Source of the DNA: Alphaproteobacteria bacterium
Lineage (GTDB): Bacteria; Pseudomonadota; Alphaproteobacteria; Bin95
Reading direction: 5' to 3'
DNA length: 64,000 nucleotides
Assembly: GCA_963665325.3 (NCBI GenBank)
Contig: OZ224045.1
Coordinates: forward strand, 2,080,001 to 2,144,000
Each line of letters begins with the position of its first letter. Positions within the stretch are counted from its first letter, which is position 1. Position numbers and translations under genes: made by a program. A model generated the notes under the pieces. That model saw only the letters and a list, made by a program, of their open reading frames with translations. It had not been told where the DNA came from and ran no database searches. This document shows, one piece after another, positions 5,659-47,046 of the stretch.

Positions 5659-5688
5659 AGTTCGATCTCCCTGGGGCCGTTCGTATCA

Positions 5689-6151: not shown

Positions 6152-6188
6152 ACGGATGGCCGGGTCGCGTTGGGACCCGGTCGAGCTG

Positions 6189-6233
6189 CAAGAAAAAGCC
6201 CCGCGGGCCGTAGAGGCCGGCGGGGCTTCTTGC
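6189..6233. terminator. Bidirectional rho-independent terminator
   Basis: AAGCCCCGC...GCGGGGCTT hairpin flanked by A and T tracts, between convergent genes. Confidence 0.7.
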
Positions 6234-6251
6234 TGGTGAAGGGGGTGTGGG

Positions 6252-6506
6252 TCAATTGAAGAGCAGCGGCTGGCCTTCCATGGAGGCGGTCATGAGGGCA
6301 GTCCAGATATCGCGGGACATGCCGAGCCTCGCGTTGAGCTTGTCGCACAGCCTTTCGGCGTCTTCGAGGCTGCGGGTCGAAAGGCTGGTGGAGATATAGC
6401 CGGGGTGTCCAAGGAAGACGATCCGGATTTCCTGGGGTTCGTCGGGGAAGTCGTAGGCGGGGCAGAAGGCGTAGGTTGGGTTGGCCTCGATCTGTTGCAG
6501 ACTCAT
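6252..6506 (-). CDS. Small hypothetical protein
   Basis: 84-aa ORF with normal composition, followed by a terminator. Confidence 0.6.
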   Translation of the reverse strand: MSLQQIEANPTYAFCPAYDFPDEPQEIRIVFLGHPGYISTSLSTRSLEDAERLCDKLNARLGMSRDIWTALMTASMEGQPLLFN

Positions 6507-6850
6507 GGCGCGGGTGCTTTTCGGTCCGGTGATGGGGGGAGGGGCGGCGTCCTTTCGTTGAGCTGGGGTTTCCGGATTGCTGGCCTGGAGGGGGCCGGCG
6601 GGTGAGGAGTGGCGAAAGCCGGTCGCCGGTTTCGTGCGATCGGTCGCGATTTGAGCGCGTTGGTGTAGGTGACGGCCCCAAACTGCACTTATTTGCTGAA
6701 GTCGACGGTTGAGCGCAGCAACCCGATAGCCACGCGGACGGCGGTTGGGAGCGTTCCTCGGCGGAGCGGTGGGTAAGTGTAGTCCGCCGCAGCGACCGGC
6801 GACGAGTTTGGTGCCGGCGGGCTGGCGTCCCGGAGGTCAGTACAGCGAGG

Positions 6851-7195
6851 CTATTCGTCTGCTCCACCCGGTTCGGGCGATGCCCCGGAAGCCTGAAGGT
6901 TACGGGCGATGATGTAGCGCTCGATGAAGTCGAGCTTGCCGAGGATCAGACCCTTGAGTTCGGCCTGTGAAGTCTCAAGGGCGCGAAGACGTTCGTCGAA
7001 GCCGTCCATGCGCTTTTCGAAGCCATCCATGCGCTTTTCCAGGCTGTTGCTGACTTCGCTGATGCGCTTGCCGAGGCTGTCGTTGACCTCGTCGATGCGC
7101 TTGCCGAGGCTGTTGTTCAGGCCGCGTTGGCCTTGAAGCATCAGCCCTGCGAGGGCTACGCCGACAGCGAGGATGGCGATCATCTCGGGGCTCAT
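6851..7195 (-). CDS. Membrane-anchored coiled-coil repeat protein
   Basis: Hydrophobic N-terminus, then 11-aa (SLGKRIDEVND) and 7-aa (KRMDGFE) repeats, with matching 33- and 21-bp DNA repeats. Confidence 0.7.
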   Translation of the reverse strand: MSPEMIAILAVGVALAGLMLQGQRGLNNSLGKRIDEVNDSLGKRISEVSNSLEKRMDGFEKRMDGFDERLRALETSQAELKGLILGKLDFIERYIIARNLQASGASPEPGGADE

Positions 7196-7384
7196 GAGGG
7201 ATTCCTATCAGGTCAGGGGTTGAAGGTCCACGCGGGGCGTTTCCGGGCGGTCGCAGGCGGGTGTCGCCCGGTTTGGAGGAACGGGGGAAGGTCCTGCCCG
7301 AAATTTCGGCATGTTGCCATCTCCGGCTTTGCTTCACTTCGGGTAGGGCGCTGGCGATGTTTGCGGTCCTGGGTTGCGGTGTCG

Positions 7385-11839: not shown

Positions 11840-11955
11840 CAGCGGGGTCCCGATCGGTCAATGGCGGCGCCGGGCGTTCTTGCAGCCCGGTGTCATTGGG
11901 TTCGGGAAGAGCCTGCTTTTCTGGTCTCTGGAGTGGGCCGTGATGGCGAAAGGTG

Positions 11956-12282
11956 TCAGAGTGAAATGCGATGAATTCCGGGCTGGGGGTTGGAATGGAG
12001 AAGTTCCGTTGCAGAGGGAATCAGGGGTTGAAGATCGTTGAGTCGGTTGGTCACGGAGACGAGTATGAGGACGGCAATCGGGATGGTGTGGAGGTTTTGC
12101 TGGTATTCAATCCCGCGATCTACGGTGAGGAGGGCGTCAAAGGAGTGGGATGCTGCGCGGCGCAGGAGTTCTCCGTTGGATATCCCTGACCAGCCCATGA
12201 TTTGGGTGGTGAGGATGTCGAACTGAGGCGGGAAGAGAACGGACAGGCGGCGGGGAAGGGATTCGTCAAGCAGCAGCTTCAT
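11956..12282 (-). CDS. DUF5615/PIN-like toxin (VapC45 type)
   Basis: MKLLLDESLP..GWSGISNGELL..LLTVDRGIEYQQN; overlaps the DUF433 gene. Confidence 0.85.
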   Translation of the reverse strand: MKLLLDESLPRRLSVLFPPQFDILTTQIMGWSGISNGELLRRAASHSFDALLTVDRGIEYQQNLHTIPIAVLILVSVTNRLNDLQPLIPSATELLHSNPQPGIHRISL

Positions 12283-12490
12283 TGGGAGAGCTTGTCAGGA
12301 TTGTCTTTGCGCGTTCGAGAACTGCGACGGCCTGGTCGCGAGTGACCGTCGGATAGTCGTAGAGAAATTCATGAAGCGGATCGCCCGCTTCCAGATATTC
12401 GATGAGCGTTCGGACGGGGACCCGGGTTCCGGCAAAAACGGGAGTGCCTGCGAGAATTTCAGGGTCGCGGTTGATGAGCGTGTCGGTCAT
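12266..12490 (-). CDS. DUF433 antitoxin
   Basis: DPEILAGTPVFAGTRVPV..FLYDYPTV. Confidence 0.9.
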   Translation of the reverse strand: MTDTLINRDPEILAGTPVFAGTRVPVRTLIEYLEAGDPLHEFLYDYPTVTRDQAVAVLERAKTILTSSPNEAAA

Positions 12491-12608
12491 GGGAACCTGC
12501 GCGTTTGTGTTGTCAGGAACGAGAGGCAGGCTTGTGCCGGTTCGGGAATCATATCACAGCCGGGGTGAGAGGTGGATGTTGGCTTCGCTGGACTGAAGGT
12601 CGGCGGGG

Positions 12609-14117
12609 TCAGGCGGCGAGAGAGTGGAGATGCGGCCGGACGTTGGCTGCGACGAGAGCTTCGGCCACGTCGGGGCAGACGGAGTTTCCGCACATCCGGA
12701 TCTGGGCTTCCTTGGTGAGAGGCTTGCCGTTCAGCTCGAAGGCGATGCGGTATGTGTCCGGGAACCCCTGGGCGTTGTAGAGCTCGCGGGCGGCGAGCAT
12801 GCGCATGCCGATATCGGTGAGCTGGTAGTCGATGGCATCGACGGTGACGAGGCCGAAGCGGGCTTTTGTTGTTGCTATAGGACAGGGGTGCCGGAGTTCC
12901 GATCCGGTGTTGGTGCCGTAGTATTTGGCGAGGAAGGCGGCTACGAGCGCTTTGTGCTGGCCCTGGGCGAGGATGGTGTTGACGGGCTTTCGAAGGTCTC
13001 CGGACCCGCCATTGGTGTTGCTGTGGTGGAAGTTGGTAAGGCAGGCGGAGACGAGAGTGGTCTTGCCGCCTCCACCGGGCATGACCGTGGGCATGGGATT
13101 GTTCAGGGCCTGTCCGGTGCTGGCGCCGAACTCGCGGGTGAGGAGAGACGTGACGAGAGCCTGGTTGGAGCCCCGGGAGACGATGGTGCTGACGGGCTCG
13201 TTGCAGGAGTGGCCGGTCATTCCCGTGTTGTGCTGGGCCATGTGGGCCGCAACGATGGCGAGCTCTCCGCGCTTCGCGGTGGTGATGGTCCGCAGGGGCT
13301 CGGTAATGGCGTGTGTGCGGTGGTCGCCGGCATGGGTGACGGGGATGATGAAGGGCTGGGCGGCGTCCAGAACGTAGCGTTTGACGCCTCGAGCGATGCG
13401 GGCGAGGGTTTTGTTGGCGAGCGGGCGGCGGACGCCGATTTTGCGGGCCTGCTTGCGTGACAGGAAGATGGAGTGGACGGGGATGGTCCAGTCCATGCAG
13501 TCGGCGGCGACGCGGAAGGGTCGGCGCCCGGGGCCGTGAGTGGGTTCGGGCCAGGCGATCGGAAGGCCGTCCCGGCGGGCGACCAGGAAGAAGCGGGTTC
13601 TGAAGGTGGGCGATCCGTAGTCGCATCCGCGCAGCTTGCGCCACTCGAAGCGGTATCCTGCGTCGGAGAGTGCCGCGAGCCATGCGCGGAAGGTCTCGCC
13701 TTCGCGCGACTTGTCGGGGCGGCCGTTCGCAAGGAGCGGTCCCCACCCCATGAACTCCTGGACGTTTTCCAGCATGATGACGCCGGGACGGGCAAGGCGC
13801 GCCCAGTGGATGACGACCCAGGCGAGGTCGCGGCTGCGCTGCTGGTCCGGGCGGATGGGAGCGGCGCCCTTGGCAACGCTGAAATGCGTGCAGTCGGGAC
13901 TGAACCACGCCAGAGAGATGGGACCGCGTCGGGAGATCTCTGCGGGGTCGACCGACCATACGTCCTGGAGGTGGTGGATCGTGGCAGGGTGGTTGAGGCG
14001 GTGCATGGCGACTGCTTCGGGATCGTGGTTGACGGCAATGTCGACCGGGCGGCCGAGGGCCTTTTCGATTCCGAGCGATGCACCTCCCCCGCCGGCGAAG
14101 TTGTCGACGGTGAGCAT
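12609..14117 (-). CDS. DNA (cytosine-5) methyltransferase, orphan
   Basis: FAGGGG, SPDCTHFS and ENV motifs, C-terminal GNSV; about five PxxTI-like repeats in the variable region. Confidence 0.92.
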   Translation of the reverse strand: MLTVDNFAGGGGASLGIEKALGRPVDIAVNHDPEAVAMHRLNHPATIHHLQDVWSVDPAEISRRGPISLAWFSPDCTHFSVAKGAAPIRPDQQRSRDLAWVVIHWARLARPGVIMLENVQEFMGWGPLLANGRPDKSREGETFRAWLAALSDAGYRFEWRKLRGCDYGSPTFRTRFFLVARRDGLPIAWPEPTHGPGRRPFRVAADCMDWTIPVHSIFLSRKQARKIGVRRPLANKTLARIARGVKRYVLDAAQPFIIPVTHAGDHRTHAITEPLRTITTAKRGELAIVAAHMAQHNTGMTGHSCNEPVSTIVSRGSNQALVTSLLTREFGASTGQALNNPMPTVMPGGGGKTTLVSACLTNFHHSNTNGGSGDLRKPVNTILAQGQHKALVAAFLAKYYGTNTGSELRHPCPIATTKARFGLVTVDAIDYQLTDIGMRMLAARELYNAQGFPDTYRIAFELNGKPLTKEAQIRMCGNSVCPDVAEALVAANVRPHLHSLAA

Positions 14118-14134
14118 GGGGATTCTCCGGTGGG

Positions 14135-14890
14135 TCAGATCAGGCCGGCTTCGGCGAAGCTGAGATGGCCGGAGTTGGTGATGATGATGTGGTCGAGGAG
14201 CCTGATGCAGAGGCAGGCGGCGCCGGTCTTTATCTCTTTGGTGAGCGCGAGGTCGTGGGGGGACGGTTCTGCCACCTGGCTGGGGTGGTTATGCACGAGC
14301 ACGATGGCGGTGGCGTTGAGTTCCAGGGTCCGCATGACGATGTCGCGGGGATGGGCGGGGACGTTGTTGACGGTGCCGGTGCGGTGCAGCTCGAAGGCGA
14401 TGGGCCGGTTGCGGATGTCGAGGTAGAGGATGTGCAGTTCCTCGTGCGGTTTGTGACCGATGAGGGACCGGCAGTGCTCGATCACGGACTTGTAGTTGTT
14501 GAGCATCGGGTTGACGTTGGTCGGGAGGCGCGCTGTGGAGTGCCGGATGGCGAGGGATTCGGCGACCTTGATTGCGACGATGGCGTCATTGTCGATGCCG
14601 GGGATGGAGCGCAGGCGGCCGGGAGTGGCGGCAAGGATGCGGGAGGGGTCGCGGAAGACGTCCAGCAGGGTGTCGGCAAGCGCTTCGGCCTCGTCGTTCG
14701 GCCGGGAGCCCGAAAGGAGAAGGGTGACGAGCTCGCGCTCGTCTAGGATGTCCGGCTGTTCGCCTATGAGCCTGAGGGCGGGAGAAGCAAGCGCAGAGGC
14801 CGGCGCTGTTTCGGCGTGGGTGCAGGGGCTGGAAGCGAAGAGGGGTAGGCCGGGCGTGCGCGGGGCCGCGCAGTCGTCGAGCGGGGGCAT
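14135..14890 (-). CDS. radC: RadC/JAB-domain protein
   Basis: HNHPS..PSPHD..LLDHIII; start chosen at the internal ATG. Confidence 0.85.
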   Translation of the reverse strand: MPPLDDCAAPRTPGLPLFASSPCTHAETAPASALASPALRLIGEQPDILDERELVTLLLSGSRPNDEAEALADTLLDVFRDPSRILAATPGRLRSIPGIDNDAIVAIKVAESLAIRHSTARLPTNVNPMLNNYKSVIEHCRSLIGHKPHEELHILYLDIRNRPIAFELHRTGTVNNVPAHPRDIVMRTLELNATAIVLVHNHPSQVAEPSPHDLALTKEIKTGAACLCIRLLDHIIITNSGHLSFAEAGLI

Positions 14891-15083
14891 TGGCAGGGTC
14901 CCATAGCGTCGGGGGTCGATGACGGACCGGAGCGGTCCGATCTGGCCGAAAGCGGCTTTCCTCGGCTTTGGGCTGCGGTGCTCAGAGGCTGACCTGGATG
15001 GGGGACAGGAACTTGCGGTGAGCGAGGGGTGTTGGGACCGGTCAGTTGTCTTCTGGCTGGTGGACCTGGATTGTGTCTGCGAG

Positions 15084-15593
15084 TCAGCCCTGGATGTGGC
15101 GTGTGACGAGCAGGCCGGTGAGGAAGGCATCTGCCTGAGTAGTTCGCCGGATGTCCTTCCAATGTTGAAGCGCTCTGATTGCTAGCTGGTGGTAGTACAG
15201 GGCATCGGATCGCTGGAAGAGGCGATAGGTGTTGTAGTCGGCTTGGTGCCGGGCTTCCTGAAGGTCTTGGAATGTTTGTGCGATTGCAACGAGCCGGGGG
15301 TCTATGGCAACGCCGGTGAAGGCTGGGGCCAGGTTGCTGGGAGGGTTGCCTGCCGCGAATGACTTGCAGACGGCGCGCATGTCGGAGTGGCGGAAGGCAC
15401 GGGAGACGCATTGACGGATGGAGGTACGATGCGGGCCCGGCATCATCCGTCGTGTCGCGTCGTCGACCAAGCAATGGAACAAAGCGTAGTACGACGCCGA
15501 TATGGCGCGGCGCAGGCTGGCTTGGGAGGGGCGTCTGGGTTCTTTTGTCGCCAGGTGATGCGCCTGCTTCAGCAGGTCGGCATGCAGGCTCAT
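15084..15593 (-). CDS. HEPN-like protein (putative toxin)
   Basis: RRAISASYYALFH and LQEARHQADY. Confidence 0.75.
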   Translation of the reverse strand: MSLHADLLKQAHHLATKEPRRPSQASLRRAISASYYALFHCLVDDATRRMMPGPHRTSIRQCVSRAFRHSDMRAVCKSFAAGNPPSNLAPAFTGVAIDPRLVAIAQTFQDLQEARHQADYNTYRLFQRSDALYYHQLAIRALQHWKDIRRTTQADAFLTGLLVTRHIQG

Positions 15594-36196: not shown

Positions 36197-37102
36197 TCAG
36201 GAACTCGTGGGTTGTCCGGCGCCGCCCTGTCCGTTCATGAGCTCGAGCCAGGCGATGAACTCTTCTTGCTCTTCGGCGCTGGCGGCGATCCACAATTTCT
36301 GGAGGCGCTCCAGGGTGGTCTTTTCCGGGGAAGGTTCGGCACCGGCGGGTGGCTCCGGAGCTTCGTCCGGTGGCTGTTCCTGTTCTCGGCGGGGATAGAC
36401 GTCGGACAGGGCCTCGACTTCGTAGTTGGCGCTCTGGAGGTCCTGTAGAAGGGCGTCCTGTTCGTCTGAGTCCATGCCGGAAATGGTGAAGAGGTCGCCT
36501 TCGCGGTGCGCGATGGGTGTCATGGCGAGCTCCTCGCGCAGCTCGTCGGTGATCTTGTCTCCAATACGGAGCGCCCGGCGGATCGTGTAGGAGCTGAAGG
36601 GAGTGAACGATGCGGTTGCGGCGACGAAACCCTGCTGCGAGCCATCGGCGTTCTGGTCCTGGAAGTCGCTGCTTCTTCGGTCGCCTCCGCGCCGGGTCTC
36701 CGGATAGAGGCGCTCGTAGATCTGCTTGCGCCGAGAGAGGAACAGGCCGCGGTCGAGCGGGTTGAGCTCGGCGCGCATCAGGTTCTCGTCGATCTCGAGC
36801 AGGGCCAGCGTGTCCTCGTCGAGCAGGTCGAGAACGAAGGCCTCGATATGCGGCCAGGCCAGGAAGCGTGCGGCCTGGACGCGATGGGCGCCGGAGACGA
36901 GCGCGTAACGGTCGCCGTCCATGCGCACCTGGATCGGATACTGAAGCCCGTGCAGCTTCATGCTCTCGGCAAGGTATTGGACGGTTCCGCCGTTGACGGT
37001 CCGGAGGCGCTTGCCGAGATCGATCAGGTCCAGCTCCAGAAGGACCGTCTGGCGGGGTTGTTCCCGCACGATGACGGGGGCGGCGGCCGGAGCGTCCATC
37101 AT
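36197..37102 (-). CDS. ParB N-terminal-domain protein
   Basis: GLQYPIQV, LVSGAHRVQAA, EIDENLMRAEL, GGDRRS. Confidence 0.9.
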   Translation of the reverse strand: MMDAPAAAPVIVREQPRQTVLLELDLIDLGKRLRTVNGGTVQYLAESMKLHGLQYPIQVRMDGDRYALVSGAHRVQAARFLAWPHIEAFVLDLLDEDTLALLEIDENLMRAELNPLDRGLFLSRRKQIYERLYPETRRGGDRRSSDFQDQNADGSQQGFVAATASFTPFSSYTIRRALRIGDKITDELREELAMTPIAHREGDLFTISGMDSDEQDALLQDLQSANYEVEALSDVYPRREQEQPPDEAPEPPAGAEPSPEKTTLERLQKLWIAASAEEQEEFIAWLELMNGQGGAGQPTSS

Positions 37103-37281
37103 TCTTCTCCTTCAGGCCCGTCGGGTAGTGAGGGGATCGTTGGATGTGCGCTGTCCGGTTCGGGCCAGGCGTCCTGGAGGGGGTCGAAGATCTGCTTTCG
37201 TGCCGCGAGCAGGCGGGCGCGGTCGAGCGGAGCAAGTCCCGGTCGGCGCGGCGCACCATCCATGTCGGCCAGGGCGGTCAT
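37099..37281 (-). CDS. 60-aa ParB-like mini-paralogue
   Basis: LAPLDRARLLAARKQIF matches LNPLDRGLFLSRRKQIY; overlapping start/stop on both sides. Confidence 0.55.
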   Translation of the reverse strand: MTALADMDGAPRRPGLAPLDRARLLAARKQIFDPLQDAWPEPDSAHPTIPSLPDGPEGEE

Positions 37282-37820
37282 GACCCTGCATCCGGGTCGG
37301 CAAGCCACTCGCGGAATTCGTCGCGCTCGGCCCGGGAGGAGTTGCGCCAAATGCGCTTGAAGCGGTCGAGATTGCTTGGGGTTGGCGCCGGCGCGTCCGG
37401 GTTCGCCATGAGAGCGGACAGGGTGGCAGGCGGCTGTGCCGCTTCTTGCAGGCATCGCAGTAGCTGCTGCTGGTCGTCAGCGTCCATGTCGGCGATTTGC
37501 TCCAGGTCTCGAGTTCGCCTGGCAATCGGTGTGTTTGCGAGAGCGTCCAGGAGCGAGATTTCGATCCGCGCTCCGATCCTGGCGGCACGCTGGATGGTGC
37601 GCATGGACCACGGTGTCGACGCGGCGGCAACTGCCGCGAATGAGGGTGGGCGTTCCGTGGCTGTGATTTCGCGTAGAAACTGAGGGATGCTGAGGTGGGC
37701 GCCTCGTTTGGTTTCGGGATAGCAGTGCTCGTAGACCTGTTTCTCCTTCGCCAGATAGCGTGCGCGGCCCAATGGAGTTAGCGAGGTGAAAACATCGTCG
37801 TTTTCGGGCGAAGTGCTCAT
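37278..37820 (-). CDS. ParB-like paralogue lacking the N-terminal domain
   Basis: LTPLGRARYLAKEKQVYEHCYPET..RIGARI..DLEQIADMDAD. Confidence 0.75.
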   Translation of the reverse strand: MSTSPENDDVFTSLTPLGRARYLAKEKQVYEHCYPETKRGAHLSIPQFLREITATERPPSFAAVAAASTPWSMRTIQRAARIGARIEISLLDALANTPIARRTRDLEQIADMDADDQQQLLRCLQEAAQPPATLSALMANPDAPAPTPSNLDRFKRIWRNSSRAERDEFREWLADPDAGS

Positions 37821-38755
37821 TTCTGTTCATCCGCGTGCTGCTGCTGGAGCCAGGTGTAAAACCGCCGCTGATGGGATTGAGGCGTCTTGTCCCAGAGTTT
37901 CTGCAGACGCTCGAAGGGGTCGGGTCTGGATGAGGGCCTGTAAGGGTTCGTCGTAAGAGCGGAGAGAGAGAGCGGCTGTCGTTCCGCGTTCTGGATGCGT
38001 TGCAGCAGGTCCTGCTGCTTGTCGGCGTCCATGTCGGCGATGCGCTCCAGGTCTTTCCGCCGACGGCCAATTGGCGTGCCGGAAAGAGCCTTGCGAAGGT
38101 CGGGATCGAGCCGCTCCCCGATGCGGGTGTAGACGTGAATCGTGTGGGGGGACCACCGGGTTGAAGCCGCGGTATCTTCGACGAATGAAAGCGGACGGGC
38201 TTGGGGGGTGTCATGGCCCTCTTGATCAAGTTGTCGTTTCGACAGGTTGATATTATTTCGGTATTGCAAGCTCTTACGATCTCCCCCGTGCCTGGTTTCC
38301 GGATACAGGCGCTGGTAGATCTCCTTGCGCGTGGCGAAGAAATGGGCCCTGTCGACCGGATCGAGCTCGGCGCGGCAAAGGTTCTCGTCGACTTCGAGAA
38401 GTCTCGCCTCTTCCTCCTCCAGGTCATCGACCAGGAATGCCTCGATGTGCGTCCATCCGAGCTTGCTGGCTGCGGCGATGCGGTGGGCACCCGCGATCAG
38501 ACGGAACCGGCCGGGCTCGATGGTCCTGATCTGTATGGGGTAGATCTGCCCGCGGGCCTCCATGGATTCCGCGATGTGGTCGACGGCTGCCTCGTCAACC
38601 GACCGAAGCCGGTCCTCGACTTCGATCATGTCGATCGGGGTTGGCAGCGAACGGCGGTGGGGAACCGCATTCGGTAGGTTGGCTGCTTCCGGAGCTCTGG
38701 GTGCGTTGGATTTTCCCTGGGCCATCTTGGTTTTGAGCTTGGCAAGGCCGGTCAT
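37817..38755 (-). CDS. ParB N-terminal-domain protein
   Basis: GQIYPIQI, LIAGAHRIAAA, EVDENLCRAEL, GGDRKS; coupled to parA. Confidence 0.9.
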   Translation of the reverse strand: MTGLAKLKTKMAQGKSNAPRAPEAANLPNAVPHRRSLPTPIDMIEVEDRLRSVDEAAVDHIAESMEARGQIYPIQIRTIEPGRFRLIAGAHRIAAASKLGWTHIEAFLVDDLEEEEARLLEVDENLCRAELDPVDRAHFFATRKEIYQRLYPETRHGGDRKSLQYRNNINLSKRQLDQEGHDTPQARPLSFVEDTAASTRWSPHTIHVYTRIGERLDPDLRKALSGTPIGRRRKDLERIADMDADKQQDLLQRIQNAERQPLSLSALTTNPYRPSSRPDPFERLQKLWDKTPQSHQRRFYTWLQQQHADEQK

Positions 38756-39432
38756 CGGGAATCTCCGTTGGGTCGGGAAGCGTCCGAAACGACGGTGAGT
38801 GAGGGTTCCGGCCAGGCGAAGACGGCTGCAGCGAAGGCGCGCGCCTCGGCTGCGGCAGGGGATCCGGGCGTGAATTCGCTCACGCCAAGGCCGTAGGTGC
38901 AGGCGTGGGCGAAGGCGGACCGTTGACGAAGCATGGTCGGGAGGATCGGAATCTTCTCGTCCAACAGGAGTTGCCGGGCTATGCCGACCAGACGGTGACC
39001 GCGCGTCGGTGCTGCCGAGAAGACGATGACCGCTGACGTCTGCGCCATTCGGCAGACGTCGAGGGTCATCCGGATCGAGGCGAGGTCGAAAACCTGGGGC
39101 CGGCAGGGAATGACGACGAGGGTGGCGAGTTGGGCCGCGGCCAGCATTGACATGTCCGTGTGTCCGGGTGTGTCGAGGACGATGACCTCGTAGCCCCGCT
39201 GGGCCGCCCCGCCGATCTCACGGGGGAGCCGGCTCGGCTGGGTCGTGATGACGTCTGGGAAGGGCTTCTCGCGGAGATCGCTCCAGGTGCCGGAGGAGCC
39301 CTGCGGGTCGGTATCCACGATCATCGCCCTCTTTCCGGCCAGGCAGGCCTCGACCGCGAGGTTCGTGGAGATCGTCGTCTTGCCGGATCCGCCCTTCTGG
39401 GAGATGACGGCGTAGATGTCGGGTTCGGTCAT
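38752..39432 (-). CDS. parA: ParA-family ATPase (short form)
   Basis: SQKGGSGKTT, VDTDPQGS, VLDTPG. Confidence 0.93.
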   Translation of the reverse strand: MTEPDIYAVISQKGGSGKTTISTNLAVEACLAGKRAMIVDTDPQGSSGTWSDLREKPFPDVITTQPSRLPREIGGAAQRGYEVIVLDTPGHTDMSMLAAAQLATLVVIPCRPQVFDLASIRMTLDVCRMAQTSAVIVFSAAPTRGHRLVGIARQLLLDEKIPILPTMLRQRSAFAHACTYGLGVSEFTPGSPAAAEARAFAAAVFAWPEPSLTVVSDASRPNGDSR

Positions 39433-40340
39433 GGATTTACTCCGTTGGCTTGGTCGGCGCCGGCGGAACGGCGGCGCGAAGATGCAAGGAGGTCGGCAAC
39501 AATGCGGTCGAGGTGGATTTGGTCAGAGGAGGCGCGGTCGATGATTTGACGGACGAGAGTGGTGGGGTTCCTGCTGCTGCTGGTTGCATGGTTTGCGCTG
39601 GAGAGAATGACTGCGACGGCCGCGCCGTGGGCGCGAAGTAAGGTGCGGAGAAGTTGCCAGGTCTTGTCCGAAACCCCAGCGTCGAGACTGAGGTCATGGC
39701 GGGCTTCGCGGATAACCTCGAGCCAGCCTGCGTCGGGTGAAAGTGGCTGCCAATCAGGGTCGATCAGCCGGAGACAGGCATGGACATCTGCAAGGGAAGG
39801 CAAGTGATCGATCGCGTAGGGGGGAGCGGGGTGACGGAGATTGCGTAGCTCTGTGAGAAAGCATGCGCATGCTCTGTCGAGATGGATTTCCTTCGCGTTC
39901 TCGGAGTCTCCCAATGTGTCGGTGAAGTTGTGCCGGGGTTCCGAGGGGAAGGGGCGAATGAGGCCGATCGCATAGGAGAGTATGTCGGCGGCGCTCCCGG
40001 GGCGGTCGCCGATTTCTGTGAAGATGCGCTGGGGCTCGGCGTCGAAGGGACGAAGGAGATCCATTGCGGCGGATAGAATGGAGGCGGTGGCGGCCGCACG
40101 GTCCCCGATTCTGCCGGATACGCGTTGCCAGGCGGTTTGAGGGGAATAGGTAATGCCGAGCCAGGGTTCCGAGATTTCGATGTTGACTTGCTGGGCCCGG
40201 ACCACGAGTTCGTCCCACGTATTGGGAACCGGACCGGGAGCGGCGTAGAGGAAGAGCTCGACAAGGCCGAGGAGATCGCGGAGCACCGGGAACGGCGGCA
40301 GCGAAAACACGGGGCTTTCACGAGGGGGTTCGAGCGTCAT
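39429..40340 (-). CDS. Protein with two RepC C-terminal-like domains
   Basis: TWDELV..AWQRVSGRIGDRAAA and GWLEVI..GVSDKTWQLLRTLLRAHGAAVAVIL resemble RepC LGISPEAWRDAC..ASMAVVIV. Confidence 0.65.
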   Translation of the reverse strand: MTLEPPRESPVFSLPPFPVLRDLLGLVELFLYAAPGPVPNTWDELVVRAQQVNIEISEPWLGITYSPQTAWQRVSGRIGDRAAATASILSAAMDLLRPFDAEPQRIFTEIGDRPGSAADILSYAIGLIRPFPSEPRHNFTDTLGDSENAKEIHLDRACACFLTELRNLRHPAPPYAIDHLPSLADVHACLRLIDPDWQPLSPDAGWLEVIREARHDLSLDAGVSDKTWQLLRTLLRAHGAAVAVILSSANHATSSSRNPTTLVRQIIDRASSDQIHLDRIVADLLASSRRRSAGADQANGVNP

Positions 40341-40507
40341 GTGAGCTGTCCTTTCGGGCGGTCCGGTCGTGGGCTTGAGGCCGTTCTGTGTGTTGGAATG
40401 CTGTGGGCGCTGGCGTAGCCGGTGCTCTGGAAGCGCTTCCGGTCGATGGTGGCGGCCCGGGCCGGCGCCGAATTGAACGGCGCTGCCGCAGGCTGTAGGA
40501 TCGGCCC

Positions 40508-40708
40508 ATGGACAGGTACAGAATCGGTGGCGAGCCGCCCGCCATACCGGGATTCCCGGAGGACTGGCGCGACCGGATCAAGGCCGACCTCGCGGCCCAG
40601 CTTGAGGCCGGGGGCACGCTCTACAGCCTCCGCCCGGACGGTGCCTATGTCGCGCGCACCAGGGAGGGAGACCGGGTGCTCGGTTGGCCCGACTGGGAGT
40701 GCGACTGA
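40508..40708 (+). CDS. Small protein upstream of the zeta-like ATPase (possible partner)
   Basis: 66-aa ORF in operon position. Confidence 0.5.
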   Translation: MDRYRIGGEPPAIPGFPEDWRDRIKADLAAQLEAGGTLYSLRPDGAYVARTREGDRVLGWPDWECD

Positions 40709-40728
40709 CCCGGCAGGCGCCGTTCGCC

Positions 40729-41301
40729 ATGGCAACACTGCATGTGGTTGCCGGCCCGAACGGATGCGGCAAGTCCACCCTGACAAGAATGAGGGGCTTC
40801 GGCGATATCGAGGCCATCGACCCGGACGCCATTGAGCGCGATCAAGGGTCCGGAAACCCGGGCGCGGCCGCCCGCGAGGCGTTGCGCCGGCGGCGGGACG
40901 CACTTGCATCCGGCCGGTCCCACCTGGTGGAAACCACCCTTGCCGGCGCCGGCGTTCTCCGCCACATGGAGGTCGCGCGGAGGGCAGGCTACCGGATCGT
41001 CCTGCACTATGTGTCCGTCGCCTCGTCCGCCCAGGCGCTTGATCGTATCCGCAACCGGGTCGCGTTCGGCGGTCACGATATCCCGGAAGCGGACGTGCGG
41101 CGGCGATTTGCGCGCTCGCACGCCAATCTGCCGGCGGCGATGGTGCGGGCGGACCTGTCTCTGCTCTACGACAACGCCGATTCTGATCGGCCGCATCGGG
41201 CGTTTGCGATTCTGGGCGAGGGGACAAGGTGGATTGCCAATGCGGTTCCAGGTTGGGCGGTCGCGGCTCTCGCCCGGGCCGGGCCGCTACTACCGGGGTG
41301 A
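40729..41301 (+). CDS. Zeta-toxin-like / AAA_33 P-loop kinase
   Basis: VAGPNGCGKST, ETTLAG, RVAFGGHDIPE..RRF, YDN. Confidence 0.85.
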   Translation: MATLHVVAGPNGCGKSTLTRMRGFGDIEAIDPDAIERDQGSGNPGAAAREALRRRRDALASGRSHLVETTLAGAGVLRHMEVARRAGYRIVLHYVSVASSAQALDRIRNRVAFGGHDIPEADVRRRFARSHANLPAAMVRADLSLLYDNADSDRPHRAFAILGEGTRWIANAVPGWAVAALARAGPLLPG

Positions 41302-41375
41302 GACCGGCGGACAATGCCAACCTGCGGTTGGATCGGCCGTTGGTGGAAACGGCCTTTGTGGCTATGGTGGCTATC

Positions 41376-41627
41376 ATGAAACAGATCGCAGCCAGGGATG
41401 CCAAGAACCGCTTCGGGCAATTTCTCGATGCCGCCCAGAGCTCGCCCGTGAGCGTGACCAAAATGGGTCGCCCGGTCGGGGTAATGATGTCGATGCAGCA
41501 CTATGAACGGCTGCGCGGTGCCGCCTGGGAACGTTTGGCTGCGACGATGGATGCAATAGGCGAAGAAGCATCCGCGAACGGTTTGACGGAGGACGGACTC
41601 GAAGCGCTTCTGGCGGATGAGAGCTGA
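41376..41627 (+). CDS. Phd/YefM-family antitoxin
   Basis: ARDAKNRFGQFLDAAQ..PVSVTKMGRPV. Confidence 0.9.
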   Translation: MKQIAARDAKNRFGQFLDAAQSSPVSVTKMGRPVGVMMSMQHYERLRGAAWERLAATMDAIGEEASANGLTEDGLEALLADES

Positions 41628-42039
41628 CCGCGTTGTTGCCGATACCAACGTCCTGATCAGCGCGGTGCTGCGCCCTCAGGGACCGCCGCGCGCAGCGATC
41701 GATGCGGTCAGGCTGGAGAACGGTGTTCTCCTGTTGTCTGAGGGGACCCCGATGGAGCTTCGGACGCGGATTTTGGGCCGGAAGTTCGATCGTTATGTCG
41801 GCCGGGATGTGCGGACAGCGTGGGTGGCCCAGCTTGAAGCGGTCTCGGAATGGATTCCGGTCTTTGGCGCAAGGCTCGGGTGTCGGGATCCGGCCGACGA
41901 CAAGCTGCTTGAGACGGCCCTGATGGGCGATGCCGGCTGCCTGATTACGGGTGACCGGGACCTCTTGGCGATGTCGCCGTTTCGCGGGATTCCTGTGCTG
42001 ACGCCGGCTGCTTTCCTGGACAGCGTGAGGAGCGGATAG
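41617..42039 (+). CDS. PIN-domain toxin
   Basis: VVADTNVLISA, CRDPADDKLLETA, LITGDRDLL. Confidence 0.9.
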   Translation: MRADRVVADTNVLISAVLRPQGPPRAAIDAVRLENGVLLLSEGTPMELRTRILGRKFDRYVGRDVRTAWVAQLEAVSEWIPVFGARLGCRDPADDKLLETALMGDAGCLITGDRDLLAMSPFRGIPVLTPAAFLDSVRSG

Positions 42040-42059
42040 CGCCAATCGGGACAGGCCTG

Positions 42060-44081
42060 TCACAAGCCAGTCTCCAAGCTGACGGAATCAGACACCTCGA
42101 ACGAGGTCCTGGACCGGTAGAGGAGCGAATTGTGGGGGAACAGTTCCGGGAGAGACCCGGGGCGTGTGGCTTCGTGGAACACGATCCTGGCGAAGTCCTT
42201 GCGGTTCCGTTCCTCTTCGAAGGCAGTTGCCGCGAGCGCGGCGGCGGCGGCCCGGCGGGGGCCGAGAATTCGGCAGGCGCGCTGCCAGTCGTTCTCCGAG
42301 AGACCCAGCCGCCCGGTGGCAAGGCCGTGTGCGGCCGCGGTCAGCTCGTCCCAGTCCAGTTCGGAGCCGTCGTCGATGCGCTCGCGTATCGAACGGGGGC
42401 CGTGCCGCTTCATGACTTCCGGGCCGGGCAGAAGTTCGGGAGCTGCGGGCTGGAATTCACCGTTCTCGAGCGCGGCGACGACGGCCAGGTCGATCTCGGC
42501 CTCGATCGCGGAGAGAGCCCGTGCATGGATGCCGTGAAACCAGTTCCTGTCGTATTGGCTCCTCAGCGCGGCGATCCGGTGGATGAGGCGGGGCTCCGGG
42601 GCGAGGTGCGGGCGCGGCGCGGCATACAGGACCGCGGCGGCCGCGCCTCTGGGCCCGACTTTGTCTTCGAGACGGGCCCAGGTCTCGTCGTCGATGTCGA
42701 GCGTCTGTCGGCCCAGCCGTCGGGCATTGTCGATCACCGAGTCCCAGCCGTGGCACTGGCCGGGAGCGGCGGAGACAGGCGCCCATTGCGTTTCGGGGAT
42801 GCGTCCCCGGATGTCGTGGATGTCGGGGACCGGCTTGAGAGGCTCTGTGAAGGCGATGGCTGCCGGAGAAGTGCCGAACCCGTCTCCAGCGGAGACGATC
42901 TCGTCGAGATCGAGTGTGCCAGCGCGGGCCAAGCGTATCGCCGACTCGAAACAGAGCTCGGCCAGGCCGTAATGCCGGGGACTCCAGTTATCCCAAGACA
43001 GAGCCAGCATGGCGACGACCGTGAAGGCGCGCTGTCCCAGCAGCTCCTTCGCCTCCGACAGGTCGGGCTTGTTGGCGAACCGGTACCGGTTCGGAAGATG
43101 GATGCGCACCATCCGGTCGTAGAGATTGTGCCAGGAGCACATGTCCGTGTCCGGGCCTGTCGGCGAGTGCGGGCAGCGGCGTCTGTACAGTTCGCGGGCC
43201 CGCTCCAGCGACGGGGTCCGGACGTCCAGGGTTCCGGAGTTCGGGAGGAGGGACAGCCGCGCGGTTGCCTGGACGAGCTTGCGGGCGGTCCGGTCGAGGG
43301 TGGCGGGCTTCTTGAGCGCGGCGGCGACCGTGCCGCGCAACGAGCCCGCAGGGTCGGAGACGAGCTCGAGCGACTGCTTGGCCATTGCGATGATGGCGGC
43401 CGCAGCCGCGCCGTGCCGCCCGAGCTGCGTCCGGGCCTGCCGCCAGTCCTCTCTCGGGACGAGCCGGTCGAAGAGGGCGATGCGGCGGGCCTGGTGGATG
43501 ACCTGGGGCCAGAGGGGCGCCTGGCGGTCCGGCCCCGGCGGATGGATATGGCGAAGGAGAGTCGCCAGGACATTCGGGTCGGGAAGGCCAGGCGCCGCGA
43601 CTGCGGGCTCCGTCTCGTACCGGACTGCCGCGAGCAGCTCTTCCGCCCGGGCCCGCAGGTCGCAATCGCCCCGCGCCAGTGCGCTCAGGGTCTCGTCGAG
43701 CGCAGTCGGTCCCGGCAGGGTTCCGAGGTCCAGAGATTCGGCGACATCGGCAAGAATGACGGCTGCTGCTGCGGCTTCCGGGCCGACCTTGCGGGCATGG
43801 GCCTTGAAATGATCCTCGGGCTCTTCGACGTAGAGGTGCGATGGGGTTATCGGACCGCTGTCCCCGTCATCGAAATGGTGGAAGGGACTGCCCGGATATC
43901 CGGCCCAGAGGAAAGGAAGAATGTGGGGCGCCAGGCGTGCGAGGTCCTCCGGGGTTTCGGGCGGGCCGCCCGGGAGCACCCGGGGAGCGGCCTGCGACCA
44001 GGGCAGCAGCTGGCGCAGGGTCTCCAGTGAGGGAAGGGGGACGGGCGGCCGGTTCCCGGCCGCGATGTCGGTGTCGGTCAT
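42060..44081 (-). CDS. 673-aa protein of five tandem RepC C-terminal-like domains
   Basis: Five units of about 125-150 aa, each with LP..L..W....A....W.....(L/V)G..(G)AAAA. Confidence 0.72.
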   Translation of the reverse strand: MTDTDIAAGNRPPVPLPSLETLRQLLPWSQAAPRVLPGGPPETPEDLARLAPHILPFLWAGYPGSPFHHFDDGDSGPITPSHLYVEEPEDHFKAHARKVGPEAAAAAVILADVAESLDLGTLPGPTALDETLSALARGDCDLRARAEELLAAVRYETEPAVAAPGLPDPNVLATLLRHIHPPGPDRQAPLWPQVIHQARRIALFDRLVPREDWRQARTQLGRHGAAAAAIIAMAKQSLELVSDPAGSLRGTVAAALKKPATLDRTARKLVQATARLSLLPNSGTLDVRTPSLERARELYRRRCPHSPTGPDTDMCSWHNLYDRMVRIHLPNRYRFANKPDLSEAKELLGQRAFTVVAMLALSWDNWSPRHYGLAELCFESAIRLARAGTLDLDEIVSAGDGFGTSPAAIAFTEPLKPVPDIHDIRGRIPETQWAPVSAAPGQCHGWDSVIDNARRLGRQTLDIDDETWARLEDKVGPRGAAAAVLYAAPRPHLAPEPRLIHRIAALRSQYDRNWFHGIHARALSAIEAEIDLAVVAALENGEFQPAAPELLPGPEVMKRHGPRSIRERIDDGSELDWDELTAAAHGLATGRLGLSENDWQRACRILGPRRAAAAALAATAFEEERNRKDFARIVFHEATRPGSLPELFPHNSLLYRSRTSFEVSDSVSLETGL

Positions 44082-44905
44082 GGTTTTTCGCCCTTGAGCT
44101 CGCGGGACTTGATGAACGCGGTCGTGCCTTCATGTGTGGAAAGCTGCTTCAGGATCTTGTCGGGCAACTCTTCCGGGACCGGTCCGGGATGTTCGAGGAT
44201 TTCGTTTACCGTGATGCACACGGCGATCACCGCGCCGAACTCGTCCTGGCGACGGCAAAGGGTCTTCCAGACGCGCGGCGATATCCGGAACTCGGGCAGG
44301 GCCCGCTTCGTCGCCGCGATCACGGTCTTGCAGTCCAGCCTGCCGAGAGGCGGCATGAACCGCGCGAGAGGCACGGGCATGCGGCTGACCGCCAGGGCGG
44401 CCAGCCAATGATCGATATCGGCCGGCGCAAGCGCGTCGCGCTCGGCTTCGGTCATCGTCTCGATCTTTTCGACGAGCGCGTGCGCTTCCCTGATCGAGGG
44501 GGGCATGCGCTCCCGTCCCCGTATCTCCACGGGCGGGAGATCGGCGAAAGCTGCGGGAGATATTGCCTGGAGCGGGGTATCGGAGGATCCGGGATCGTTG
44601 TCGTTCCCGATCTCGACCGGCACGAAAGCTCCGATCTCTCTGAGCCGGTGCGCATATTCCAGAAACTCGGCCTCGGTCAGTCCCAGTGCCATCATGGCTT
44701 GCTGCGGTGTCACGGTTGATACGGGACGCCCGCCCGCGAGCCATTCCTTCTCGTCGATGCTGCCAATCCAGTATTCCAGCAGGCGGACCGGCCCTTCCGG
44801 ATCGCTGCCCAGCCCCGCGCGCGCCGCAACAGCGGGGAGTCGCAGAAGCCGGATAACCTCCCGGGGGTCGGTGTCGTTTGGCAAGCCGTTGGCGAGGTCA
44901 GGCAT
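44078..44905 (-). CDS. Compact RepC-like protein (winged-helix-like N part plus RepC C-like part)
   Basis: LLEYWIGSIDEKEWLAGGRPV..ALGLT..HRLREIG parallels RepC YLRLSFKKLFRNDFEPGDCPPTV..KLDLS..KDLARAG; ISPRVWKTLC..GAVIAV. Confidence 0.65.
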   Translation of the reverse strand: MPDLANGLPNDTDPREVIRLLRLPAVAARAGLGSDPEGPVRLLEYWIGSIDEKEWLAGGRPVSTVTPQQAMMALGLTEAEFLEYAHRLREIGAFVPVEIGNDNDPGSSDTPLQAISPAAFADLPPVEIRGRERMPPSIREAHALVEKIETMTEAERDALAPADIDHWLAALAVSRMPVPLARFMPPLGRLDCKTVIAATKRALPEFRISPRVWKTLCRRQDEFGAVIAVCITVNEILEHPGPVPEELPDKILKQLSTHEGTTAFIKSRELKGEKP

Positions 44906-46598
44906 GGTGCAGTTCCGTTTCCCTTTCAGCTCTGCGGCTGCTGTTTCCTCCGGTGCGGACCGTTGCTTGCTCTGCAAGGAGCTGCTCGTAGTGGCGCTCG
45001 ACTTCGTCGAGATACGGCCAGCAGCGATATCGGGAGACCAGCTCTCGCCAGGCCAGAAGAAGACCGCGCGGGTCTGCGGCGGTCCGGCAGATGGCTGCCA
45101 TGGTCGCCTGGTCGGCCCGCTGCCCGCCGACTCGCAGCGGTACGGGTCGAAGGCTGGGCTCCGGACCGGGGATGGAATGTTCTTCCTCTGTTGCTGGCGC
45201 GACCCGGTCGACGTGAAGCTGCTCGCTGCGCTCGATCGCGCCCCATAGCGAGCCCGCAAGGTTGAGAGTTCCCTTCCGGGCCCGCTCCGTCAGCTTCCGG
45301 AAATAGCCGCCGGCGCTGGTGTGGATCTCGCCGGCGTCGTCCCGCGAGGCGACGATCACGACCGCCATGGATGCCCAGGCAGGCGAGAGAGCCGTACAGG
45401 CGTCGCGCCAGGCTTCGGGCGATATCCCGAGTTCGCTGCGGGTCCGCGCGGCGGCCTCGAAGAACTCCTCTGCGGTCGGAGGCCGCCCGGCAGGCAGGAA
45501 ACGCGACTGGCGCGGGCTGAGGGAGTCCAGGATGAGCCACGCCGGCGGTCCTCCGGGGACCGGCGAGCGGCCGAGGCCGGAGGGACTACCGTCTCCCCTT
45601 TCCGGCGAAGGGCGGGCGGCAGGCGCTGTGCGCGGTTTCGGAGAAGGCTCTGTCGGTGGGTCTGCCGCTACAAGAGTACTCTCTTGGAATTGGTCTGTAA
45701 TTGAATTGGACCCTGTCGTCAGAGGGTACCCCAGGGTGAAAATTTCAGCATCTTTTTCGGATTCAGGCGGTGCGGAGACAGAGGGTTCGACCTCCTCCAC
45801 GATCGGCAGTTCGCCAGCATCCAGGCGCGGTTCGGTGAGTGTGCGAGCCTGGTGCTCAACGTCGAGGGCCTCGTCCCGAAGAGAACGAAGGATGGCGATG
45901 TTGGAGCGGTCGATACGCTTCGCGTCGGGGAGCGCCAGGACACGGGCGAGCAACGGCTGGAGTGCGCCTGCGGGCGCCTCGTCCCTGCGCAGCGCGGCCT
46001 GGAGAAGAATCCGAGTGTGGCAGCGGATGGTCGAAATCCTGTGGACCAGGCCCTCGCTCTCGATCTCCTCTTCCTCGGCCAGCAGCTGCGCGTCATCGAC
46101 TTCATCGGCGATGGCGTCCAGGGGGGCGAAGGTCACGCCATTGGCCCAGCGGATGCGGCCGTCCTGCTTGCTGCGCTTGCCGTCGCGGCGCCGGCTGGCC
46201 GTGTCGGTCCAGTAAAGGAAGCCGGCCCGAGCGAGATCCTTCTCGATGTTGGAGACGGTGCGCGGGCTGAGGTCCAGCTTCTCGGCAAGTTTCCGTTTGC
46301 TTATCCAGACGGTGGGCGGGCAGTCGCCCGGCTCGAAGTCGTTCCGGAAAAGCTTCTTGAACGACAGACGGAGATATTCGACATGGACGGGCTTCAAGCC
46401 GAAGCGCTCCCGGACGCGCCTGACCTCGAGGCGGGCGTGAAGCGCCCAATGGTCGAGGCCGTCCTCGCGGCCCGTCCAGGCCTCGGCGGCATCGCGTGCA
46501 CGGTCGAACTCGGGCTTGTGGAGTCGGCAGCCGGTGGAACCGGGGCCGCGCGGGGTGTTGCCGCTGCGAGAGCGGCCTGTACCGTCTTGTTCTGACAT
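44898..46598 (-). CDS. repC: RepABC-type replication initiator RepC
   Basis: PTVWISKRKLA..LARAGFL..D...RRDGKR..GVTFAPL; C-terminal LGISPEAWRDAC..SAGGYFRKLTERARKGTLNL. Confidence 0.88.
   Translation of the reverse strand: MSEQDGTGRSRSGNTPRGPGSTGCRLHKPEFDRARDAAEAWTGREDGLDHWALHARLEVRRVRERFGLKPVHVEYLRLSFKKLFRNDFEPGDCPPTVWISKRKLAEKLDLSPRTVSNIEKDLARAGFLYWTDTASRRRDGKRSKQDGRIRWANGVTFAPLDAIADEVDDAQLLAEEEEIESEGLVHRISTIRCHTRILLQAALRRDEAPAGALQPLLARVLALPDAKRIDRSNIAILRSLRDEALDVEHQARTLTEPRLDAGELPIVEEVEPSVSAPPESEKDAEIFTLGYPLTTGSNSITDQFQESTLVAADPPTEPSPKPRTAPAARPSPERGDGSPSGLGRSPVPGGPPAWLILDSLSPRQSRFLPAGRPPTAEEFFEAAARTRSELGISPEAWRDACTALSPAWASMAVVIVASRDDAGEIHTSAGGYFRKLTERARKGTLNLAGSLWGAIERSEQLHVDRVAPATEEEHSIPGPEPSLRPVPLRVGGQRADQATMAAICRTAADPRGLLLAWRELVSRYRCWPYLDEVERHYEQLLAEQATVRTGGNSSRRAERETELHHA
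45665..45765. other. Candidate oriV inside repC
   Basis: Locally AT-rich stretch with a GANTC site and the palindrome CAAGAGTACTCTCTTG, in the position known for repABC origins. Confidence 0.45.
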
Positions 46599-46656
46599 GA
46601 TTTTCGACGCTCGGCGGCGTCCATGCCTCGATCCCCACTTTTTTCGCTTTCCCGGC

Positions 46657-46685
46657 TTGACTGGGCAGACCGGGGGGGTTACCTT
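46657..46685 (+). promoter_or_regulatory. Promoter of the antisense RNA upstream of repC
   Basis: TTGACT-N17-TACCTT, opposite to repC. Confidence 0.6.
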
Positions 46686-46691
46686 CCGCGC

Positions 46692-46800
46692 TTGAGGCGC
46701 TTCGGAAGGTCCTTGATTGTCGTGTGGGGACTGAAGCTTCAGTCCGATTTTCGGGCTAAGATCGGGGGGCGGAAAGGGCATTCCGCTCCCCGCTTTCTTT
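46692..46800 (+). ncRNA. Putative counter-transcribed (ctRNA/incA-like) antisense RNA
   Basis: Promoter, an internal 18-bp palindrome and a GGGGGCGGAA/TTCCGCTCCCC hairpin with T tract; same layout as repABC ctRNAs. Confidence 0.55.
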
Positions 46801-46875
46801 AACCGCTTGACCGCTGAGGGCTAACCGAGCACAATTCTCCGGCTCCTAAGGTTAGAAGCCTGCCGGCTGTGGTGG

Positions 46876-47046
46876 CTAAGACAGGAGCATGTGCCAGCCC
46901 GGCGGGATCGCGGCGCCATCTTCGGGCTCCAGGTCCTGTCGCCCGAGCGTCTTTTGGAACAACAGCACGGGGGCTGCCGCCGCTACATCGCTGTCGGTCT
47001 GGCGGGTGCCGATATGGCTGCGGATATCGGCAAGATCGTCGGGCAT
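46876..47046 (-). pseudogene. Truncated 5' part of a MaoC/HTD2-type (mesaconyl-CoA hydratase-like) gene; probable integration junction
   Basis: MPDDLADIRSHIGTRQTDSDVAAAAPV..LGR..GAAIPPGWHMLLS then stop; absent from the ORF track (56 aa). Confidence 0.7.

Follow-up and report, generated by a model that had tools for sequence, protein, structure and literature searches.

Genes made of RepC C-terminal-like domains between repC and parA in an alphaproteobacterial chromosome

Among Alphaproteobacteria, replicons of the commonest type initiate replication with RepC, and replicons of the repC family are controlled by antisense RNA. Here we analyse a 64,000-nt stretch of an alphaproteobacterial genome (GTDB lineage Bin95; GenBank assembly GCA_963665325.3, contig OZ224045.1, positions 2,080,001 to 2,144,000), in which repC is followed by further genes made of units that resemble its own C-terminal domain. 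This whole stretch is called the window below, and coordinates are positions within it; the genome has 5.58 Mb in 5 contigs. The gene order is repC-p275-p673-(TA)-p303-parA-parB, where the numbers give protein lengths in residues and TA is a block of toxin-antitoxin-like pairs. The explanation we favour is that the locus represents the replication-partition module of a large, chromosomally integrated plasmid-like element, with the order repC-X-parA-parB, and that in this lineage accessory genes (X) derived from the C-terminal domain of RepC itself accumulate in the slot that separates repC from parA.

Shortened or extra forms of an initiator that modulate replication are familiar from the short forms of R6K pi and from TrfA-33/44 of RK2. 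There, likewise, a partial initiator is co-produced and alters activity or oligomeric state. However, those forms are translated from start sites within the initiator gene and retain its DNA-binding part, whereas here separate genes carry one to five copies of a non-DNA-binding domain.

The RepC of the repABC plasmid p42d of Rhizobium etli (PMC3155836) has the same two domains, RP-C and RP-C_C, as the RepC of the window, and partition genes of the ParA/ParB type adjoin repC here too. The order repA-repB-repC is not found: the window has repC-X-parA-parB, and repC comes first in 14 other modules as well. The RepC of repABC replicons is about 400 aa long, a size given in the excerpted text of PMC10194956, against 566 aa here; moreover, repC is followed here by one to three additional genes built of RP-C_C-like units, and the module lies in a chromosome. 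As in repC-only replicons, no repA and repB precede repC. The RepC2 of pSmeLPU88b (611 aa) indicates that over-long RepCs occur elsewhere too; in the excerpts of PMC10194956 its extra ~200 residues are ascribed by the authors to an insertion sequence (IS) event and called dispensable. Unlike this IS-derived extension, that of the long RepCs in our set is a second RP-C_C-like unit.

According to the excerpted text of the p42d report (PMC3155836), the role of the RepC C-terminal domain is known only via the incompatibility phenotype: trans-incompatibility is determined by the final 39 residues of p42d RepC, for whose C-terminal region the authors suggest a replicon-specific dimerisation. A literature search (supplements not included) returned no described counterpart of the arrays. 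By title or abstract, no work on truncated or partial RepC dealt with stand-alone C-domain proteins, and among the matches listed for RP-C_C/PF11800 there was only unrelated 'RP-CC' chemistry.

RepC C-terminal-like units in p275, p673 and p303

A single minus-strand gene run spans 36.2-46.9 kb of the window, with the TA pairs inside it on the plus strand. It begins with repC (44898-46598, minus strand), which encodes an initiator of 566 aa with the Pfam domains RP-C (PF03428; residues 34-201, 57.0 bits versus a cut-off of 24.4) and RP-C_C (PF11800; residues 360-456, 73.5 bits versus 32.6), followed by a lineage-specific tail (residues 461-566). The stop of repC and the start of p275 overlap in ATGCCTGA (8 nt), and ATGA overlaps, read directly in the sequence, join p275 to p673, p303 to parA, parA to parB, and parB to p180, a further small gene. 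The extra genes are intact and translationally coupled to repC and parA. A reading made earlier from the sequence alone had placed repC and the genes for proteins of 275, 673 and 303 aa before parA, with overlapping stops and starts and with p303 coupled to parA; all of this stands, and the anatomy of the locus is very nearly certain.

The largest extra protein, p673 (42060-44081, minus strand), consists of five RP-C_C-like units of ~125 aa: U1 (residues 35-160), U2 (161-290), U3 (291-415), U4 (416-545) and U5 (546-673). On the whole protein Pfam RP-C_C scores 56.8 bits against the cut-off of 32.6, in two stretches. When p673 is cut into five, pieces 2, 4 and 5 match RP-C_C with E of 7e-5, 0.085 and 1.3e-6, respectively, and pieces 1 and 3 give no Pfam match. 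In hhalign comparisons of profiles built from 12 p673 homologues and 8 RepCs, U2, U4, U5 and the C unit of RepC are mutually related with P of 2.4e-6 to 7.7e-9, except for U4 versus the RepC unit (P 8.5e-4). U1 and U3 align in register with U2 with P of 1.3e-4 and 2.5e-4, and the RepC N-terminal region, used as a negative control, gives P >= 0.12 with every unit. Thus, three units of p673 are strongly supported (U2, U4 and U5) and two weakly (U1 and U3). For U1, residues 10-161 of the Atlas model of the homologue P0003 align to a protein cluster that contains RP-C_C only, with a hit-normalised TM (template-modelling) score of 0.50. In the unit tree U3 groups with unit 3 of a four-unit protein of another genome (G016 X734; support 96/89), which the iterated unit hidden Markov model (HMM) finds at E 8e-17, an E-value inflated by the inclusion of the family's own sequences in that model.

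The protein p275 (44078-44905, minus strand) is a genuine mini-RepC. Its winged-helix domain (residues ~9-100) resembles RepC 42-127 and is connected by a disordered linker (96-130) to a helical domain (131-271) that resembles the RepC C unit. With hhalign, its residues 1-100 match RepC 25-215 at 96.3% probability (P 1.5e-9) and its residues 131-275 match the RepC C unit at 94.0% (P 1.3e-7), in agreement with the earlier claim that it echoes both halves of RepC; Pfam finds no family in it at E <= 10, neither RP-C nor RP-C_C. The AlphaFold2 (AF2) model, with a predicted local distance difference test score (pLDDT) of 70.6, has two domains joined by the disordered linker. All 50 listed VIA structure matches fall on residues ~9-100, two of them running on to 218 and 223, and most of those listed are named winged-helix or helix-turn-helix DNA-binding proteins (Z 5.3-6.7). 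The extra proteins lack the DNA-binding RP-C domain of RepC, and only p275 retains a winged-helix part. This part has an isoelectric point of 4.6 (residues 1-100) versus 8.8 for RepC 1-215, and the X proteins are acidic as well; hence, protein binding fits them better than DNA binding.

The third extra protein, p303 (39429-40340, minus strand), contains two RP-C_C-like units. Its Pfam RP-C_C score of 30.9 bits (E 3.4e-7) lies just below the cut-off of 32.6. Each of its halves matches p673 units at 91-97% probability in hhalign; the second half matches U2 at 97.4% and the RepC C unit at 79.7%. The protein is colinear with residues 12-277 of p673 (E 4e-9). With one unit in RepC, one in p275, five in p673 and two in p303, nine units are counted, seven strong and two weak. 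The sequence-only reading, which had counted about nine C-terminal-like domains in intact frames, is thus right in number, its units do match RP-C_C by Pfam and hhalign, and its picture of RepC C-terminal-like domains amplified in intact, translationally coupled genes holds.

The AF2 model of p673 is all-helical and forms one compact helical body (pLDDT 77.7; predicted template-modelling score, pTM, 0.66). Foldseek of the whole model against the PDB returns nothing at E <= 0.001. A comparison is offered by DnaD and DnaB, the primosomal proteins of Bacillus, which have repeated DDBH2 domains; such domains also occur in plasmid and phage initiators. They, too, are replication helpers made of repeated small helical domains, and the fold gives only a weak lead to them: 2zc2_B, the C-domain of a DnaD-like replication protein, aligns to U2 over 72 of 75 residues with Z 3.7 and a root-mean-square deviation of 3.7, which is within the noise for helical models. 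No sequence relation to DnaD/DnaB is seen, since Pfam gives only RP-C_C and the sequence searches of the PDB are empty, that with the RepC profile having 0 matches at E <= 10.

The slot between repC and parA in related modules

Fifteen repC-parA modules were compared: three in the window's genome (G000), one in L021/L022 and 11 in nine other genomes of the same genus. L022 is a metagenome locus and the closest relative with DNA (90% nucleotide identity). The genome G008 stands outside the 15; it has a Pfam RP-C_C match, and the filter for open reading frames (ORFs) recovered no module from the stretch analysed. In all 15 modules repC comes first and parA-parB follow; the conserved synteny that the earlier reading had named as a check recurs in other genomes. 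A new finding is that what lies between repC and parA is hypervariable: this slot contains zero to three genes and zero to eight extra units.

The slot is empty in the C1b module of the window's genome, in G016b and in G001. In G011 a ParA-like ORF follows after a 60-nt gap (not resolved), G005 has the p275 homologue alone, G012 an ORF of 147 aa with one weak unit, and G007 an ORF of 253 aa (X253) of uncertain reality with no unit found. A two-unit protein is present in G006, G004 and the C3 module of the window's genome, and a 734-aa protein with four detected units in G016a and G013. The G006 module reads repC-X265-parA, and X265 is 40.7% identical to p303 (tblastn). L022 carries p275 and a five-unit protein, and the window carries p275, a five-unit protein, the TA block and a two-unit protein. 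As three of the 15 modules have no slot gene, replication does not depend on the arrays, and neither does the quiescence of an integrated copy. This qualifies the functions suggested in the earlier reading, namely a dominant-negative silencer, a replisome scaffold or a panel of decoys.

RepC itself occurs in two forms. The short form, with one unit and the special tail, is found in the window, L022, G005, G006, G012, G016a, G013 and others; the long form, with a second unit fused in cis, is found in C3, C1b, G004, G007 and G016b. This second unit (C3, C1b, G004 and G007) matches U5 at 97.5% (P 5.4e-12, 101 columns; hhalign), and in the unit tree the two cluster with support 94/92. One and the same domain thus occurs as a part of RepC in some modules and as the product of a neighbouring gene in others. 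The two further repC-parA-parB modules of the window's genome (G000 C1:2342240-2344252 and C3:623382-625373) both encode long RepCs; the C3 module has a two-unit gene before parA and the C1b module has none.

The sequence-only reading saw in the locus a cascade of domain amplification. A single recent cascade is not what we find: the units belong to types that diverged long ago and that have counterparts elsewhere among the modules. Nothing in L022 corresponds to the segment 39438-42000, which contains p303 and the TA pairs, and the absence of this segment from the closest relative marks the run of the window as a mosaic. The ParA of the window (38752-39432) is 97% identical to that of G012 (L026 3476-4279), whereas their RepCs are 63% identical, which shows that the module is mosaic with a recombination seam in the repC-parA slot. 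On a 5.38-Mb contig of another genome an in-frame hybrid, P0013, joins RepC 1-190 to p673 235-673; we note that this join removes the RepC middle (putative oriV), the RepC C unit, p275 and U1-U2 of p673. Contigs of four sequencing runs over the region contain pieces identical to the window and ~85%-identical variants. Joints in run contigs that would delete p303 or p303 with the TA block (39433>40407 and 39391>41705) have short sides of 21-30 letters and 85% likeness, and were left unused as too weak.

Homologues of p673 form 19 clusters (42-100% identity), those of p275 11 and those of p303 seven. Each of the 12 p673 homologues that were aligned is 669-683 aa long, even at identities as low as 42%, and many invariant columns are spread over the five units. 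Against L022, with one sequence pair behind each value, the ratio of non-synonymous to synonymous substitution rates (dN/dS) is 0.31 for repC, 0.20 for p275, 0.46 for p673, 0.17 for parA and 0.20 for parB; within p673 it ranges from 0.25 (U2) to 0.79 (U3). The G+C content at third codon positions (GC3) is 0.82 in the coding frame. Judged by these comparisons, the extra proteins are conserved full-length in relatives and under purifying selection; the dN/dS check proposed with the earlier reading gives values below 1 (0.20-0.46 overall).

The family is rare. Among 1.84 billion representatives the p673-family profile finds 21 proteins at E <= 1e-3, among them one of 1046 aa that has three strong RP-C_C stretches and one of 263 aa that has two. 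It matched five of 61 related genomes, all of one genus, and RP-C_C was found in 11 of 37 genomes of the order, again all of that genus. The 72,556 plasmid records of PLSDB contain no tblastn match to p673. The two-unit protein P0045 matches 430 of them, always as a single unit and in no case over >=80% of the query; for 23 of the best 25 of these matches the hit lies under an annotated repC (or replication protein C) gene. Stand-alone proteins with a single RP-C_C exist, in Atlas clusters of ~50 members. A scan of genome contigs with the p673 alignment gave 33 pattern matches, with 0 confirmed.

The chromosomal position of the module is evident from its neighbours. The contig of the window also bears dnaA, and right of repC lie ordinary chromosomal genes, including lpxK and kdtA, in accord with the earlier claim of integration. 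Left of repC, genes of the island type follow (ribonucleotide reductase, nuclease, transposases, HU, a Strawberry-notch-type helicase, a C5 methylase and RadC). Eight of the 15 modules are on contigs >2 Mb. Together, the chromosomal neighbours, the island genes and the large contigs lead us to read the modules as plasmid-like elements integrated in chromosomes.

Possible roles of the extra proteins

We suggest, with a probability of roughly 40%, that the arrays and the mini-RepC may be non-essential trans-acting partners of the RepC C-terminal domain, which would tune initiation and incompatibility. In favour of this are the coupling and conservation of the genes, the fusion of the unit to RepC in some modules, its dispensability in three of the 15 modules, the variable and mosaic slot and the acidic nature of the proteins. 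The RP-C_C unit would be a protein-protein interaction module, in line with the incompatibility region and the proposed dimerisation of p42d RepC. Free arrays and mini-RepC would be produced in a fixed proportion with RepC and would bind its C-terminal domain in trans. The binding would shift RepC between active and inactive assemblies, and this shift would tune the frequency of initiation and set which related replicons can coexist. Arrays and mini-RepC would be accessory regulators and not part of the core replication machinery, and the conserved core would be the control by a probable antisense RNA upstream of repC.

Several points weigh against this proposal. The dimerisation of RP-C_C is a published hypothesis and not a demonstrated fact, and the fusion of the domain to RepC in cis fits a constitutive cofactor equally well. 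The unit is without a recognised solved fold: the wide VIA search with p673 gives a best Z of 5.3, to designed helical repeats, and the PDB sequence search with its profile has 0 matches at E <= 10. The dN/dS values stand on single pairs, and U3, at 0.79, looks relaxed. The starts of the modules and the bounds of some X ORFs (G004 X442 and G007 X253) are uncertain. That the element is integrated and possibly silent is, finally, a reading of its context. A complex prediction of p673 with RepC 340-566, run without controls, scored 0.00 and counts neither for nor against binding.

The alternative that survives best, which we nevertheless consider unlikely, is that the units are positive cofactors or scaffolds that would recruit parts of the host replisome (helicase, loader or primase), the arrays multiplying docking sites in trans as the second unit of long RepCs does in cis. 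The correspondence of U5 with that cis-fused unit speaks for it, as do the compact helical body of the p673 model (pTM 0.66) and the slot genes of the modules with one-unit RepCs, eight of the 11 tabulated having a slot gene with at least one unit (iterated HMM, E < 1e-3). The alignment of the DnaD-like C-domain 2zc2 over 72 of 75 residues points the same way, but its Z of 3.7 is within the noise for helical models. However, G001 has a one-unit RepC directly before parA and G005 has p275 only, so that arrays are not required, and the number of units is too variable for a stoichiometric machine part.

We regard it as improbable that the arrays are an exclusion or decoy panel, in which each unit would mimic the C-domain of a different rival RepC and trap the rival in dead hetero-oligomers, making the slot an arms-race locus. 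A hypervariable, mosaic slot is what such a panel would produce; the window's genome holds three related modules and G016 two, U5 resembles the second unit of the co-resident C3 type of RepC, and in the excerpts of the p42d report (PMC3155836) the RepC C-terminus sets incompatibility. Most units are, however, very distant from any canonical RepC unit in the set (long branches in the unit tree), and orthologous units are conserved between modules instead of diversifying, with dN/dS below 1. We give equally little credit to a bolder version, in which the slot would be a fast-evolving compatibility locus whose unit arrays and mini-RepC mimic the C-domain of the initiator, silence the integrated copy and shut out rivals. 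If true, incompatibility or 'replicon immunity' would here be exerted by proteins that arose through the amplification of part of an initiator.

A still less probable role is that of an adaptor between replication and partition, with the arrays bridging RepC or the origin to ParA/ParB. Wherever the slot is occupied (12 modules), its final gene adjoins or overlaps parA, and the parB genes of these modules are multiplied too; position alone is weak evidence, however, and in L022 ~240 bp separate p677 from parA. ParA is near-constant among the modules (81-97% identity) while the arrays vary widely, which is unexpected for a co-evolving pair. That the extra genes are non-functional by-products, duplicated or recombined repC fragments drifting in a decaying integrated replicon, would be in line with recombinant forms such as P0013, the weak variant joints in public runs, the ratio of U3 and the array-free modules, but is highly improbable given intact frames with overlapping starts kept, homologues that hold their length and invariant columns in all five units, overall dN/dS of 0.20-0.46 and GC3 of 0.82.

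The extra proteins are translated together with RepC, exist in some relatives as fusions to it, and differ in copy number. A natural family made only of the RepC C-terminal domain is a direct handle on the binding of this domain and on RepC-based incompatibility, and the locus bears on how a plasmid origin sits inside a chromosome without upsetting replication.

Control region, TA block, partition genes and surroundings

A conserved leader or control region lies upstream of repC (46599-46900, minus strand). In eight modules, whose RepCs are 30-91% identical, these ~300 nt are far better conserved than RepC. The leader contains a GC-rich hairpin (46763-46792) followed by a U-run, which is intrinsic-terminator-like on the plus (antisense) strand, and conserved TTGAC and GGTAAC blocks 17 nt apart. 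RNAalifold predicts 31 pairs for the eight modules, 6 of them with compensatory changes; the Rfam search of the leader gives no family at E <= 1. The hairpin is a candidate counter-transcribed RNA on the antisense strand, and with its conservation, structure and antisense-strand terminator hairpin the leader is reminiscent of control by a counter-transcribed RNA as in the repABC and repC families, including repC-only replicons. An ATG further upstream, at 46781, would lengthen RepC to 627 aa; as the added part would lie over the conserved leader, it is uncertain where repC truly starts.

In the middle of repC (45640-45819) the G+C content falls to 0.50-0.55, from ~0.67 around it. The oriV of p42d is an A+T-rich stretch in the middle of repC, as the excerpted report describes it (PMC3155836), and the AT-richer stretch of the window is at the same place. 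By this analogy the dip is a candidate internal oriV.

The inserted block (40508-42039, plus strand) comprises two toxin-antitoxin-like pairs, as the earlier reading had recognised. The first consists of a small ORF (40508-40708) that partners a zeta/AAA_33-like kinase (40684-41301; AAA_33 28.7 bits versus a cut-off of 27, Zeta_toxin 22.1 versus 22.3). The second consists of an ORF (~41364-41627) that we call Phd-like from its sequence and not from a tool, and of a PIN_3 protein (41617-42039; 59.8 bits versus 27), which the upstream ORF overlaps. All four genes are on the plus strand, and the combination of a toxin domain above the cut-off with a small upstream ORF, by which type II toxin-antitoxin systems were recognised, is present.

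The partition genes are on the minus strand. parA (38752-39432) encodes a partition ATPase with Pfam AAA_31, CbiA, ParA and MipZ matches, and is 81-97% identical at the protein level to the ParA of other modules. It is followed by parB (37817-38755), by p180 (37278-37820), which is like the C-terminal half of ParB without the N domain, and by a second parB (36197-37102); the ParB_N scores of the two parBs are 34.2 and 28.5 bits. ParB is thus multiplied too, with two full ParB_N proteins per module and an ORF of 180-200 aa like the ParB C-half between or just after them. This tandem pattern is seen in nearly every module examined (window, L017, L018, L019, L020, L022, L023, L024 and L026).

The contig of the window encodes a type-IV coupling protein ~95 kb away from repC, and a second such protein is encoded ~120 kb from the C3 module. 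VirB4 (PF03135) and a PF03432 relaxase were not found in the genome; hence, we do not call the element an integrative and conjugative element. There are no tRNA genes within the window. The GC skew of the contigs has no clean origin signal and so gives no evidence on whether C3 is a separate replicon. The genome has 62 matches to tyrosine recombinases (PF00589), many of them in groups of two to four within a few kb, and some copies are identical on different contigs, near the ends of C3 and C5. These grouped and repeated genes are probably the reason why the assembly breaks into 5 contigs. The island cargo at 2542-15130 comprises a YspA/SLOG protein of 1038 aa, the Strawberry-notch-type helicase of 1484 aa, the C5 cytosine methylase and the RadC-like protein, and looks like an anti-restriction or defence region.

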